Shown here: positions 1,088 to 63,944 of the stretch, piece after piece
How the letters are laid out: every line of letters begins with the position of its first letter
Numbering within the stretch: the stretch's first letter is position 1
NCBI GenBank assembly: GCA_951406725.2
Contig: OX597824.1
Coordinates: forward strand, 46,934,001-46,998,000
Source of the DNA: Octopus vulgaris
Lineage: Eukaryota
DNA length: 64,000 nt
Reading direction: 5' to 3'
The notes under the pieces: generated by a model
Told to the model about the DNA's origin: nothing
Seen by the model: only the letters and a program-made list of their open reading frames with translations
The model's database searches: none
Translations under genes and position numbers: made by a program

Positions 1088-1258
1088 AATCTGGTGGTGA
1101 AAGAAAGATCAACATTTTCGCTGTATGCCGCTACAAAGGACGCACTTATGTACTTGGGGAAACGTTCACAGCCGAAGATAAATGTAATGAATGCAGTTGC
1201 AAAAGAAAAGGTGCAGTAATATGTACCAAAAAGCCCGTGTGTTCTCCAACAATAGCAG
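1088..1258 (+). CDS. Exon/module 1: ESGGERKINIFAVCRYKGRTYVLGETFTAEDKCNECSCKRKGAVICTKKPVCSPTIA(G)
   Basis: Acceptor cttacag|, donor G|gtaata, 171 nt, six Cys. Confidence 0.85.
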
Positions 1259-2131
1259 GTAATAACTAAAAGTTATTTATAGAAGACCTTGCACAGAATT
1301 GCGTCTAAAAGTCTTGCCGAACTTTCAATTCCTCTACGAATTATAAAAAGACGAGCTTGGTAACATTAGTAACATGCACTGATACTAATTTTAAAATCAT
1401 CCTCCAATATACTTCTTTCCTTTCTTCGTATTCTAACAAAATTGGTGTTCTATTGTGAAGCATAATTTTCGGATTGGAACAAATATTTTGTTTACAAAAC
1501 AAAATTATTTGAAACATGCGTTGGAAAAAATGAGTTTAAATTCTAAACTCTCGTTCCATTTAGAACAAATGGTGCTTAATAATTTGGGCTATCTTAATCT
1601 ATTATATTCTTGTGATACTAATTTCTTGATTCCCTCGTGTGGTTGCTGTGTGAGTCGTTATGTGGTGTTGCGTAAGTCAGGACTTCAATGGATTCTATTA
1701 CTATAAGTGTCGTGGGCATCACAAAGTATGTCCTCCCTGCAGAAGTTAAATACTAAAATAAACTGTAGCTATAAATAAATGCCAATTTGAATTCTAAGAC
1801 AGGATCTTAGAATGTTGATCTCATATGATCTCGCTCTTTTGTTTGCATTATCTGTTTCAATGACCAACGTTCCGCAGTCATTGATTCATTTCAAAAATTT
1901 ATACTTCACACGTTTCTTTTGTTAGACAAGTCTTGGACTGTGGTAAACATTTCAGTTTTCTTGTCTATAGTTTGATTTGATTTCAAAAATGGCAACACAC
2001 ATGATGTCGTCTCATTTGACATGCTAATATCTTATGAACTAAATTACTGCTTCTTATGGAATGACACTCTATTCAAAATCTTCGTGTAATTCTTGGTTTC
2101 TTTTTTTTTTTTTTTGTATCTTTTCTTTCAG

Positions 2132-2278
2132 AAATTTCAGTAAAATGCCACTACAATGGCAAAACATATACCATTGGAGTTACGTTTAATGCTGCTGACA
2201 AATGCAATAAATGCACTTGCAAGGCAAAAGGAAATGTTGACTGTACCACAAAGATATGCGTTTTCTCAGAAACTCATG
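2132..2278 (+). CDS. Exon/module 2: EISVKCHYNGKTYTIGVTFNAADKCNKCTCKAKGNVDCTTKICVFSETH(G)
   Basis: Polypyrimidine tract plus tttcag|, donor G|gtaaca, 147 nt. Not in the ORF track. A second in-frame AG lies 9 nt downstream (2139-2140). Confidence 0.88.
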
Positions 2279-2576
2279 GTAACATTAAAAATTATTCTTT
2301 TAAACAATTTATAAAAACTTAATCATGGTTTTATAAAAAAAAAATGAAATATTTACGATTAAGGAAATTTGACGCCAGTCGGTTAGTAATACGTCTTGTT
2401 ATAACTAACCTTTATAAATAAATGGCAATTGGAACTGTAAAAAAGACGTCTTTCAATGTTGATCTAATGAATTTTGATCTTGTTTTACTTCAGTTATCTA
2501 TTTCAATGAATAACTTTATAGGGTATTTTCATACAGCTAACATTCCTCTCGTCAATTCATCATACCATGTTTTTAG

Positions 2577-2729
2577 GCGATTTTGAGTGACAGAACCAAT
2601 CTATATAATGGAAAATGTATGTCATTGGAGAGACCTTTGTAGCTAATGATAAATGTAATCAGTGCAGCTGTAAACCTAAAGGGAGCGTACTGTGTTCCAA
2701 AAAGATATGTGTATCTGAAGGAAATGAAG
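2577..2729 (+). pseudogene. Decayed module exon (pseudo-exon 3): ...YVIGETFVANDKCNQCSCKPKGSVLCSKKICVSEGNE
   Basis: Homologous to the other exons, but Cys1 is lost, there is a 1-nt frameshift near 2612 (TAA at 2606-2608 in the module frame), and the donor reads G|atgata instead of G|gtaata. Start approximate. Confidence 0.8.
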
Positions 2730-3463
2730 ATGATACTAAAAGTTAGCATTATAGCAGATTATAGTGTCCATCACATGTTAAGTCAGTCGAAATTTTATAA
2801 AATCCAACAGGATCCTTGAAAATTCCACGATTATTAATAAAGTAGGAGCTCCGTTTCCCCTAAGTGCAACAGCAATTTCATTACTCGTTGGAAGATGTCA
2901 AGATGCCCAGACTTTAACCGAAATGATGTACTATTCTATGACAAGGAATTTTGACTCCAACGGCAGATTCTTCTAGCTCCAGTGAATGAATGCATATTTT
3001 CATATAAAACTGAAAATATGGATTATACCAAGGAATACCGTTTTTAATATTCATTACGTTTGCTAAACACTGAGCAGTTTGAAGAGCTCCCGTTCAGTTT
3101 TGCAGTATTTTGTCAATATCTATTCTACATAACTGACAAGTAGATCTATACGACAGAAATCTTTAAATGTGGAATCTAATTCTAGTTCAGTATTACCTAT
3201 TTCAATCCATATTAAGTTTATTGTCGGTGACTTTTCTTACGACTATCGCATTTCTGTCTGATTTATATATCTTCATCACACGTCAATTTTGTTCGATGTC
3301 ACAGAATTGATTTAAACAACTGAATTTTTCTGTTTGTCTTTTATGATCGCATATATTTTATCATTAGTCAAACAAATGTATGATGAAGTAAACAAAAATT
3401 TCTTTTGAGGGCAGTGACTCTGTATTTAAAAGCTTTTTAAATTTGTGTTTTCTTTCTCCTTAG

Positions 3464-3610
3464 AGATATCAGTAAAATGCAAGTACGGAATTAAAATATA
3501 TATCGTTGGAGAGACGTTCCCAGCTGCTGATAACTGCAATAAATGCAGTTGCAAACCCAAAGGAATTGTAGAATGTACGAAAAGAATATGCCTTTCCTCA
3601 GGAAGTCAAG
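3464..3610 (+). CDS. Exon/module 4: EISVKCKYGIKIYIVGETFPAADNCNKCSCKPKGIVECTKRICLSSGSQ(G)
   Basis: ctccttag| acceptor, G|gtaata donor, 147 nt. Confidence 0.88.
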
Positions 3611-61050: not shown

Positions 61051-61139
61051 GTGTGTGTGTGTGTGTGTGTGTGTGTGTGTGTGTGTGTGTGTGTGTGTGT
61101 GTGTGTGTATTTCTCTATTCTTTTATTCTTTAATTTTTT

Positions 61140-61551
61140 TCAGTGATTTGACTGCGGTCATGCTGGACCACCGCCTTGAGTCGAATAAATCGAAGCCAGG
61201 ACTTATTGTTTGTAAGCCTAGTACTTATTCTATCGGTCTCTTTTGCCGAACCAATAAGTTACGGGGACATAAACACAGCAACATCATTTGTCAAGCGATT
61301 GTAGTGGGGGAACAAACACAGACACACAAACCTATATACAGACTTAGATATATATGTGTGTGTGTGTGTGTGTGTGTGTGTGTGTGTGACGGGCTTCTTT
61401 CTGTTTCCGTCTACCAAATCCATTCACAAGGCTTAGATAGGCCTGAGGTTATAGCAGAAGATACTCGTCGAAGGTGCCACGCAGTGAGACTGAACACTAC
61501 ACCAATACGGTTGGGAAGCAAGCTTCTTACCACATAGTCACGCCTGCGCCT
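61140..61551 (-). mobile_element. SINE family A
   Basis: Collinear with 183-569. Confidence 0.8.
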
Positions 61552-62079
61552 ATATATATATATATATTATATCATATTATATTATATTGTATTATATTAT
61601 ATTACATTAGAAACAAAGACCTAGCCCATTTCAAGATGGGTAAGAAGCGAATGCGTTTTTGGTCAAAATTATTATTCTTAACCACGATAATATTTCTCCG
61701 CAAAATTGAAAACATAATCCAATATGTTTGGCTAATTGGCAAGCTATCGATCATTAAATTCTTCGGGTTTCGAAGCAAGGAGACACTGAATGTCATGTTT
61801 AACCTCTTCTTCATGAATAAACTGTTTTCTTTCTAAATAATGTGAAAATTATGTGAAAAGATGACATTAAATTTGGCAAGATGAGGAGAGTAAGGATGAA
61901 GAAGCAACACTTCTAATTTTAGGTCCTTATTGTTTTCCTGGGTAACTTGGTCAATATCAGTATATGATATTCCTTATTTTGTAAGAGCAACAATCCTTTA
62001 TCATTGAGAAATGATAAATGCTTTCTATGCAGATGTTTGTATAACGCCTACAGCTGACAATACTTTTTTGAATTAATTG

Positions 62080-63620
62080 TTTCGAAGAATGTGGTAAAGG
62101 ACGTCAGCAATAGAATCTCCAACTTGTCTTCAAACAAAGAGACTTTTTTTATGTTACACGCCAGTACTATAGTGAGGCTTTGGCCGCCAGCGGTTTCAGG
62201 GATAGAATTAGTTACATGCCAGACCTTAGTCCTTCCAAAAGAAAGCGTCGCCGGAAAGTGTTGTGGTTCACACCACCCTTCCATTCAAATGTTAAAACTC
62301 GAGTAGGTAAGATTTTCCTTAGCTTAGTAGACAAGCACTTACCCCGTGCAAATAAGTTAACCAAAATATTTAATAGGCACACCCTGAGAATTTCCTTTAC
62401 CTGTGCACCCAATGTAAGAAGCATTTTAGTAGGTATGCCCACACCTGAGACAGGATGCTCATGTAGGGGTAAAACAACATGTCCACTGAACGACAACTGT
62501 AATACAAAGATCGTCGTATACGAGGCAGAGGTAACTGCGATGGGACCAAATGGGCAACCAAATGTGCGAAAGTATGTGGGAGCTCCTGAAGGCCCCTTCG
62601 AAAACGCTACAACAACCACAAGTCCTCCTTTAACATCCCGGAGGTACGTAATGCCACAACCCTTGCCAACACGTACTGTCATTGAAAGAAAACACCACCG
62701 AGTACAGCATAAAGTAGAAGATTCTAGAGAAATGTAAAGCGTGTTTCAATAGCAGGAGGAAGTGCAGATTACGCCTGGCTGCGAAAAGGGCGATTTCAAA
62801 GAGCTCCCAGCACCCAGGCATTTACCTGAATAGCAGAAGTGATATATTTAATCCTTGCCTACATGAAAGGAAGTACAGCCTGTTATACATGCGTGCCCCA
62901 TCATTACTATAACCACCAGTCTCCGAACTTCAGCCTTCCACCAATACCTGGGAGTCGGGAAAGAGTTTGACCAGAACATACACTAACACACCCACAAACA
63001 AACACATGCCCCAGCACGGCAGACACCCACCCAATAGACGTTTTTCACCATACCCCCAATATAAGCTCCCAGACATATTGTACACCTACACATACCGCAT
63101 GTATACATAAATGCTCCAAGAATTTAACCAAAATATAGAAGAGAGAAAACACAGTAACGAACACAGACGTGCATGCACCCGCACCACCACCCGAAGCGGC
63201 TATATATATATATAGTAGTACTACACACATTCCATTTCCACAAGAATACCAACCTTAATGGGATACACATTTACCATAAACTCTTTTCCAAAAATATCTT
63301 GCCGGCTTGCAACCCCCCCCCCACAAAAAAACGATATCCGTGCTATCAAGGGACATACCTCTTAACTCAATCACCTGCTCAATTCGTTTCTTCATTGTTT
63401 TCATAGCAACCAGAAACTGGATGTCTATATTCACCTCGAACAACAGAGAACTGTTGCGATAGTTCTAAAGAGCGCAGGGTTACATAATCGGACGGTTATC
63501 TGTGCGAAATCGATTACTAAGATCGGCCGTAATGGATATATTGTACTACACCCTTCAACATAACTACACTACTGACAGGTCTACGAGTGCATTTTCCCTG
63601 ATTAGGGACTCGTAAACGGT
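62080..63620 (+). mobile_element. Penelope-like element 3' half (GIY-YIG plus 3' region)
   Basis: RRRKVLWFTPPFHSNVKTRVGKIFLSLVDKH...IFNRHTLRISFTC...CSCRGKTTCPLNDNCNTKIVVYEAEV...YVG. Confidence 0.88.
63460..63519 (+). ncRNA. Hammerhead ribozyme motif with G5 to A core mutation
   Basis: TAGTT-CTAAAGA-GCGCAG...CTGTGC-GAAA-TCGA-TT-ACTA at the 3' end of the PLE. Confidence 0.6.
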
Positions 63621-63797
63621 ATATATATATATATATATATATATATATATATATATATATATATATATATATATATATATATATATATTATGTATTTGTA
63701 TACGTTTAAGGCCATGTTGGTAAAAAAATTTTGTCATTATATTCTTTGAGTGAGGAAGCTTCATTTGAATCGGTGCACACTTTTTTGTCTCTTTCAG

Positions 63798-63944
63798 TAA
63801 CTAAAGTAGAATGCCACTATGACGGAAAAGTATACGTAATTGGGCAAATGTTCATAGCCATTGACAAATGCAATCAGTGCACATGCAAGCCCAGCGGAGA
63901 TGTTTTATGTTCCGAAAAGATATGTTCTCACTCAAAAACCACAG
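63798..63944 (+). CDS. Exon/module 16: [49 protein letters not shown](G)
   Basis: ctttcag| acceptor, G|gtaatg donor, 147 nt. Not in the ORF track. Confidence 0.88.

Follow-up and report, generated by a model that had tools for sequence, protein, structure and literature searches.

Module exons in the window and extent of the array

The DNA analysed here, called the window, is a stretch of 64,000 nucleotides from the Octopus vulgaris genome (assembly GCA_951406725.2, contig OX597824.1, abbreviated C11; C11:46934001-46998000). In it, the original prediction had described an array of exons each encoding one six-cysteine module that resembles both pacifastin inhibitors and von Willebrand factor C (VWC) domains. 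A six-frame scan, a splice-site read-out and nhmmer searches revealed 15 intact module exons and one decayed copy, all on the + strand, as had been predicted. The strict spacing pattern gave 15 matches on the + strand of the window, none on the − strand and none in 100 block shuffles. All 15 intact exons are flanked by AG and GT, have a length divisible by 3 and are of phase 1-1. The array was also said to be open at both window edges, and module exons indeed occur from 73.3 kb upstream to 126.3 kb downstream of it.

Numbered along the whole array, the window exons are modules 16 to 31, and their positions are given here relative to the first letter of the window, together with the residue at position P1 of the presumed inhibitor loop. 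Module 16 (1076..1258, P1 Lys) has five residues rather than four between C5 and C6. An alternative acceptor AG exists at 1088, and the one at 1076 is likelier because the orthologue in Octopus bimaculoides has four extra residues. It is followed by module 17 (2132..2278, P1 Thr) and, with P1 Lys, by modules 19 (3464..3610), 20 (4516..4683) and 21 (14562..14717). The remaining ten intact exons (10/15) all encode P1 Glu and belong to a young block of modules 22-37, which starts with module 22 (17765..17908) and continues with modules 23 (23495..23641), 24 (28277..28423), 25 (31393..31539), 26 (35733..35879), 27 (38961..39095), 28 (45885..46031, the module used for structure prediction), 29 (51332..51478), 30 (57127..57273) and 31 (63798..63944). 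Module 18 (about 2577..2729) is a decayed pseudo-exon: a one-base deletion shifts its frame, its first cysteine is gone, and the usual donor lacks GT.

The searched region was then the window plus 200 kb upstream and 400 kb downstream (664 kb). Two profile rounds detected 69 module exons, 68 of them intact, over 264 kb from C11:46860677 to C11:47124306, and no further convincing module exon beyond these limits within the 664 kb. Modules 1-15 lie upstream of the window (C11:46860677-46928267) and modules 32-69 downstream of it (C11:46998120-47124306). Every one of the 68 intact exons is bounded by AG and GT and divisible by 3, the splice sites outside the window having been picked by a simple score and, in one case, by the orthologue. 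Joined in silico, the 68 exons gave 3,663 codons without a stop, corresponding to 406 kDa with an isoelectric point (pI) of 8.9, 11% Cys and 13% Lys. The introns of the array include ones of 34 and 15 kb. These data suggest that the array is likely one gene of ~290 kb encoding one secreted protein of about 400 kDa, and the 68 intact in-phase exons support the long beads-on-a-string chain in a mollusc that had been proposed.

Two Octopus vulgaris proteins named 'kielin chordin', P0023 and P0007, match flanking exons letter for letter. P0023 covers seven module cores among modules 1-9 and P0007 covers 13 cores among modules 43-65, and neither contains a window exon; the best matches of a window module are O. 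bimaculoides models with 75-77% identity. The gene was thus found in databases only in pieces, as P0023 and P0007 are partial and no full-length relative was found, and the pieces are labelled kielin/chordin-like or VWFC. This is the mis-annotation and fragmentation that had been foreseen. An ESM Atlas search with P0023 returned only leads under 0.9. No description of the gene was found in the literature searched, most subscription papers and the first coleoid venom pacifastin lists lying outside it. As far as the searches reach, the 68 intact one-exon modules, the likely chitin-binding lead exon described below, the Glu-P1 block and the unannotated centre are new; the module class, long arrays of such modules and partial orthologue models are already known. 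The ~290-kb locus has its middle missing from the protein models found, and therefore proteomes of octopus cuticle, beak or sucker, or of the argonaut eggcase, may split its peptides among 'kielin/chordin-like' fragments.

Candidate first and last coding exons

Extension of the locus bounded the array and located candidate exons for both ends of the coding region. The candidate first coding exon (C11:46843861-46844110, + strand) has an ATG, a hydrophobic signal-peptide-like start, a peritrophin-A-like domain and a strong phase-1 donor, and sits 16.6 kb upstream of module 1 and in phase with it. Its six cysteines are spaced 13-5-10-12-9, which we take to be the peritrophin-A consensus. The 127 kb upstream were scanned for ATG candidates that combine a signal-peptide-like start and a strong donor; among them this exon has the sole phase-1 donor, and no other convincing in-phase signal-peptide exon was found upstream of or inside the array. 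The peritrophin-A spacing occurs four times in the 664 kb, compared with 0-1 times in 10 shuffles. The other three occurrences are exons of a head-to-head neighbour gene and pass the Pfam CBM_14 cut-off. A profile built from these three scored the candidate first exon at E 8e-6 among 21,642 open reading frames, the next best being 0.41, and found no second peritrophin-A-like exon after it on the + strand. A gap of 100 N lies just upstream of the exon, not between it and the array. At the other end, a short phase-1 exon that ends in a stop codon (C11:47135936-47135997) is the end of database model P0007 and the candidate last coding exon. No membrane-anchor exon was found at the locus. This arrangement suggests that the upstream exon may supply a signal peptide and a peritrophin-A-like, putatively chitin-binding domain to the array.

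The head-to-head neighbour (C11:46794542-46808400, − strand) encodes a signal peptide and at least three CBM_14 domains, and its first coding exon has the same layout of signal, domain and phase-1 donor as the candidate first exon, with 27% identity. The two loci are possibly a local chitin-matrix gene pair. For a reading of the neighbour as a LamG3/Pif gene, no LamG match on C11 was found among three hits.

Module class and predicted fold

The original prediction had described a hybrid module in which a pacifastin-type C2-C6 region follows a VWC-like lead-in and the C-terminal VWC subdomain is missing. The three structural features agree with Pfam searches and with the exon ends. The Pacifastin_I cut-off was passed by 14/15 window modules and the VWC cut-off by only 4/15, covering at most positions 1-39 of 57; the exons end a few residues past C6 with no further cysteine, and the C-terminal four cysteines of the ten-cysteine VWC domain are absent. 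The hybrid is not new. It is a known class, since the same architecture has been described as 'ancestral' pacifastin-like (PMC13388995, Rodriguez-Aguilar et al. 2026; like the other papers below, cited from the part available), and it is common, with 3,417 representatives at E<=0.001 in our profile search, including bivalve and chiton 'kielin/chordin-like' arrays.

According to PMC13388995, the ancestral class has a 13-20-residue N-terminal beta-hairpin rich in Gly/Tyr/Phe, is common in molluscs (109 molluscan proteins in the set), is often embedded with matrix-binding domains, often has Lys or Glu at P1, has few cleavage sites and is proposed to be matrix-tethered. The octopus array shares the six-Cys core, the Asn after C2, the Gly in the C4-C5 loop, the hairpin, the Lys/Glu P1 and the scarcity of cleavage sites. 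Six cysteines are present in 66/68 modules, and among these 66 the Asn after C2 occurs in 55, the C4-C5 Gly in 59 and a four-residue C5-C6 loop in 63, so the modules carry the cysteine and loop features of the pacifastin family. The C1-C2 gap is 18 in 66/66 modules. In the lead-in, Tyr, Gly, Tyr, Gly and Phe are conserved and strands are predicted at residues 4-7 and 10-13, consistent with the hairpin of the ancestral class. By contrast, the available part of PMC13388995 describes neither an array of 68 modules nor a peritrophin-A-type lead domain; its main text mentions neither octopus, cephalopod nor chitin, and two of its supplements contain no Octopus entry.

The predicted structure of module 28 has five strands and a predicted local distance difference test score of 91. 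No Foldseek match reached E<=0.001; the top rows were MUC2, the collagen IIA VWC domain, locust pacifastins, fibronectin type I and VWF, and the fold neighbours also include FCGBP and the CCN3 VWC domain. The best VIA-align Z, 5.5, is below the reliability level of the tool. Superposed on SGTI, a locust inhibitor, the model deviates by 1.0 A across 32 columns, and this overlay is the observation that bears on the pacifastin disulfide pattern (C1-C4, C2-C6, C3-C5). Sequence matches in the PDB included FCGBP (E 9e-10, summed over six stretches) and pacifastins (E 1e-3). The module is accordingly predicted to fold as a five-stranded bead of the fibronectin type I/VWF-E kind with three disulfides.

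Compared with arthropod pacifastins (MEROPS I19; SGTI, PMP-C and the crayfish light chain), the modules have the same C2-C6 region and fold and pass the same Pfam cut-off. The arthropod proteins differ in their C1-C2 gap of 9-12, in a mostly Leu/Arg P1 and in the cutting of insect precursors at dibasic sites; gaps of 9 or 11 were seen in two conventional-type arrays. The six-Cys modules of VWF, mucins and FCGBP, named E or TILa, sit between VWD, C8 and TIL domains. FCGBP has the same cysteine spacing and lead-in, and these modules and fibronectin type I are the best fold matches, whereas the octopus modules stand alone in a homo-array. A long array is already known from Trichoplax TAPP-1, with 42 domains and 88 exons (PMC2689174). 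Like it, the octopus array is very long, nearly free of dibasic sites and the product of exon duplication. TAPP-1 has two exons per domain, a plain signal peptide and a trypsin-type P1 in 30/42 domains, whereas the octopus array has one exon per domain, 68 intact modules and Glu at P1 in 24/66.

P1 residues, linkers and selection

Among the 66 modules, P1 is Lys in 30, Glu in 24, Arg in one and Leu, the sole hydrophobic residue, in one. Lys occupies P1' in 36/66. In the youngest block (22-37), P1 is Glu in 16/16 modules and is one of ten invariant non-Cys columns. The specificity conferred by an acidic P1 is stated to be unknown in PMC2689174. Strong purifying selection on P1 Glu was considered and rejected: as pS 0.43 hangs on one synonymous codon among 16, only the invariance is claimed. 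The pairwise ratio of nonsynonymous to synonymous rates (dN/dS; pairs not independent) was 0.32 for block 22-37, or 0.51 without the cysteines, computed on 14 of its modules after removal of two near-copies. For block 43-49 it was 0.69. Comparison of 20 clear orthologue pairs with O. bimaculoides revealed that P1' changed five times, and that the loop is not hypervariable, its changes not exceeding those of other columns (P=0.25).

The linkers have a median length of 18 residues and contain 38% Ser/Thr/Pro (63 linkers, leaving out those spanning the two modules without the six-Cys pattern). KR or RR occurs in 2/63 and any dibasic pair in 19/63, with 13% Lys in the linkers, and no furin motif was found. 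Dibasic sites that would release single domains, as in insect precursors, are therefore not a property of these linkers.

Splicing as seen in O. bimaculoides gene models

The junctions between module exons were followed in 21 O. bimaculoides models, namely 19 UniRef isoforms (15 of the 19 members of the largest cluster being listed) and two RefSeq models. These are gene models, not reads, and skipping among near-identical exons could be mis-mapping. The orthologous exons are joined head-to-tail in 21/21 models, some with whole exons skipped, and the orthologues of modules 15-16-17-19 are adjacent in 21/21; a counterpart of the decayed module 18 is present in 0/21. The orthologue of module 20 is included in 11/21 and left out in 10/21 models, and module 20 is divergent, so its skipping is less prone to mis-mapping. 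Four exons are optional among the isoforms, and optional ones also co-occur. Up to 10 modules of the young block are present within one model. The isoform models begin at module 7 or 10, and the two RefSeq models extend from module 2 across the window orthologues. Stop codons reached by reading through the donors were also considered as a truncation device and rejected: they occur at 20/68 exons, versus 18 and 64 in control frames, with no excess.

Birth and death of modules

Modules among 2-21 and 58-67 mostly form one-to-one pairs with O. bimaculoides. In a module tree, which rests on 46 columns and is poorly resolved, block 22-37 groups with similar O. bimaculoides modules (86/92) and block 43-49 forms a supported clade (98/92). 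The tree mixes copies of both species, and a species-specific expansion of block 22-37 is not claimed. Modules 31-33 are three very recent 322-bp copies spaced by 322-323 bp. Flanking intron DNA is duplicated along with the exons. In eight duplicates, the exons are 83% identical and the flanks 70-74%, which, like the dN/dS values, points to constraint on the modules. In module 27, the acceptor used by the paralogues is gone and only an in-frame AG 12 nt downstream remains. Both exon duplication and loss, the latter in module 18 and in the acceptor of module 27, are visible in the window.

Possible function of the encoded protein

Our tentative preference, which could well prove wrong, is a chitin-tethered structural matrix protein that forms an adhesive coat on chitin-containing extracellular layers. 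The array of 68 intact one-module exons would encode a secreted chain that could reach about 3,770 residues, in which a signal peptide and a putatively chitin-binding peritrophin-A domain would come from the upstream exon. The Thr/Ser/Pro-rich linkers would mostly stay uncleaved, the basic beads (pI about 8.9) could bind acidic matrix partners through avidity, and the length and charge of the chain would be adjusted by exon duplication and skipping. Trypsin-like proteases may still be inhibited by some of the Lys-P1 beads, but such inhibition is likely not the driver of the array expansion. A mainly structural role is favoured because the youngest and most amplified heads lack a trypsin-fitting residue. 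It also fits with a loop that does not vary faster than other columns, with the scarcity of KR/RR in the linkers, with the mostly Asn/Thr P1 of other octopus arrays built from a related module, and with fold neighbours such as MUC2/VWF, FCGBP and fibronectin; the argonaut eggcase and limpet shell proteins described below are precedents.

Several observations weigh against this preference. Some concern the assembly of the gene: the junctions in O. vulgaris, including that of the first exon with module 1 across the 16.6-kb intron, are deduced from genomic DNA; the candidate first exon is absent from the 130 genome-wide CBM_14 matches (150/298 candidates scored) and from all database models found; peritrophin-A spacing and pacifastin-like modules occur together in 0/188 proteins compared; and a distant abalone protein was all that a search for full-length relatives (1,746-4,985 aa) yielded, which is weak evidence. 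Others concern the inhibitor features, which are well kept, as the 14/15 window modules above the Pacifastin_I cut-off indicate. P1 is Lys or Arg in 31/66 modules, P2 is Thr or Ser in 56/66, and P1 changed in only 1/20 orthologue pairs, so that geometry and P1 conservation would fit a working inhibitor loop. An intronless array elsewhere in the genome (L068, see below) also has Arg or Lys at P1 in 20/43 modules. Finally, the argonaut eggcase proteins considered below are likened by description alone, and other long arrays of this genome could be their orthologues.

The same inhibitor features underlie the rival that we regard as the most serious, although it is on balance unlikely. It keeps the gene and its chitin tether and assigns the protein the main job of a many-headed protease shield, with Lys-P1 heads directed against trypsin-like and Glu-P1 heads against Glu-specific enzymes, guarding a chitin-protein cuticle from own or microbial proteases. 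Besides the Pfam result, the overlay on SGTI, the four-residue C5-C6 loop, the frequent P1' Lys and the P1 kept in 19/20 orthologue pairs all speak for it; the 18-residue linkers would keep the loops free, and a precedent for an uncleaved inhibitor with nine domains is crayfish pacifastin (PMC2689174). Against the shield, the trypsin-fitting P1 is gone from the youngest block, there is no hypervariability in the loop, and P1 Lys may be compositional, as many other positions also have Lys as their consensus. The available part of PMC13388995 reports no assay on domains of the ancestral type.

A second alternative, which we consider improbable, is that the chitin-binding-type exon is part of another gene and that the array encodes an untethered secreted inhibitor or binding protein, as in the original prediction, or is divided among several shorter genes. 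No database model joins exon and array, a stray paralogous exon is conceivable because a chitin-binding gene lies next door, the 34- and 15-kb introns could conceal gene borders, and the O. bimaculoides isoform models begin at module 7 or 10. Three findings counter this: no other exon that has a phase-1 donor and a convincing signal peptide was found upstream of or inside the array, module 1 is the sole partner found for the upstream exon, and the two RefSeq models are continuous from module 2 across the window orthologues.

A more elaborate proposal appears decidedly doubtful. It holds that the protein is a chitin-tethered brush of tunable length with as many as 68 pacifastin-like heads, no longer array having been found, in which the 16 Glu-P1 heads inhibit glutamyl endopeptidases and skipping retunes the heads by tissue, and that its orthologue is the abundant, fragmentary 'kielin/chordin-like' protein of the argonaut eggcase.

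The database names suggest instead a kielin/chordin-like modulator of bone morphogenetic proteins (BMPs), in which each bead would be the N-terminal half of a VWC domain binding BMP/TGF-beta ligands. The likeness of the fold to the collagen IIA and CCN3 VWC domains agrees with this, and the N-terminal VWC subdomain bears the BMP epitope in some proteins. Nevertheless, the idea seems very unlikely: the VWC cut-off was passed by few window modules and over the N-terminal part only, the C-terminal four cysteines are absent, and a conserved patterning gene would not be expected to gain and lose modules so fast. Kielin and crossveinless-2 carry a C-terminal VWD domain, and none of the 92 VWD matches in the genome (139/139 candidates scored) is on C11, the 3' end of the array itself being predicted. 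A Dscam-like cassette of mutually exclusive exons yielding many one- or few-module receptors or effectors, as might be supposed from the symmetric exons, large introns, near-identical young block and isoforms differing in exon content, is highly improbable, because long series of consecutive modules are present in every one of the 21 sister-species models, from which the array appears to be joined head-to-tail, and moreover optional exons co-occur and no membrane-anchor exon was found.

Matrix tethering of non-arthropod pacifastin-like domains is so far computational in the available part of PMC13388995. The locus offers a direct test of it, since one gene combines what is likely a chitin anchor with dozens of heads on one scaffold that differ naturally at P1 (Lys versus Glu).

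Related arrays and matrix proteins

The same genome contains giant single-exon arrays at C9:52.13-52.23 Mb, C4:92.7-97.4 Mb and C1:163.39 Mb (L062, L063, L068, L069, L071, L081), with frames of 474-1,658 aa in which a related 37-residue six-Cys module is repeated back to back, up to 31-34 times per frame; several are near-identical gene copies. Three of these intronless arrays have mostly Asn/Thr at P1, one has Gln/Arg and one is mixed, and they are mostly read as structural in use. No chitin-binding-type lead exon was found near them by spacing in 15 stretches on C9, C4 and C1. Smaller genes with one exon per module and a C1-C2 gap of 16 (L064-L067) are located at C27:34.07-34.08 Mb, C14:33.09-33.10 Mb and C27:24.42-24.43 Mb and resemble the ink pacifastin type. 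The octopus ink pacifastin OCBIM_22015839 is a different protein of 242 aa (PMC10142993).

In the argonaut eggcase, VWC-only 'kielin/chordin-like' proteins are the most abundant matrix proteins, with 9 and 13 contigs (bioRxiv 10.1101/2021.07.10.451900, available part), and the giant single-exon arrays are candidates for their counterparts. A VWC/pacifastin protein has been reported in limpet shell matrix (PMC4094399), and the available part of PMC9635652 does not mention kielin. 'Kielin/chordin-like' proteins of Mytilus, Saccostrea and Liolophura have the same module, with a gap of 16-19, in secreted arrays of about 5-12, the octopus array being far longer; P1 is Glu in 7/9 modules of Mytilus P0025. 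No chitin-binding-type lead domain was found in the molluscan short-module proteins compared. Salivary pacifastins are listed in PMC7693380. As regards a role in venom or ink, six orthologue accessions were absent from the examined part of its salivary-gland proteome supplement, and three from the examined part of the ink proteome supplement of PMC10142993; both results are weak, some isoform ids only having been used.

Two further kinds of protein turned up. P0034, P0038, P0045, P0068, P0081 and P0189, one of them labelled Haliotis asinina, are 3,000-4,200-aa proteins with tyrosinase domains, 22-32 VWC repeats and VWD. In P0132 and P0145, LamG and S-layer homology domains accompany four pacifastin-like modules; these are bacterial-type surface proteins carrying the module.

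Other features

Long runs of CBM_14 exons are present at C6:121.73-122.04 Mb (mostly − strand, >20 exons) and C9:59.85-60.08 Mb, and may be another one-domain-per-exon array or a gene cluster. Rfam gave no match in the window. Its introns contain transposon-like remnants at 15802-16230, 18402-18947, 26556-27377, 47811-49135, 59511-59987 and 62114-62737, which by eye we take to be GIY-YIG/Penelope-like, Helitron-like, transposase-like and zinc-knuckle gag-like. The intron between modules 29 and 30 contains a 107-bp tandem repeat of 5.5 copies with 96% matches (54860-55447).

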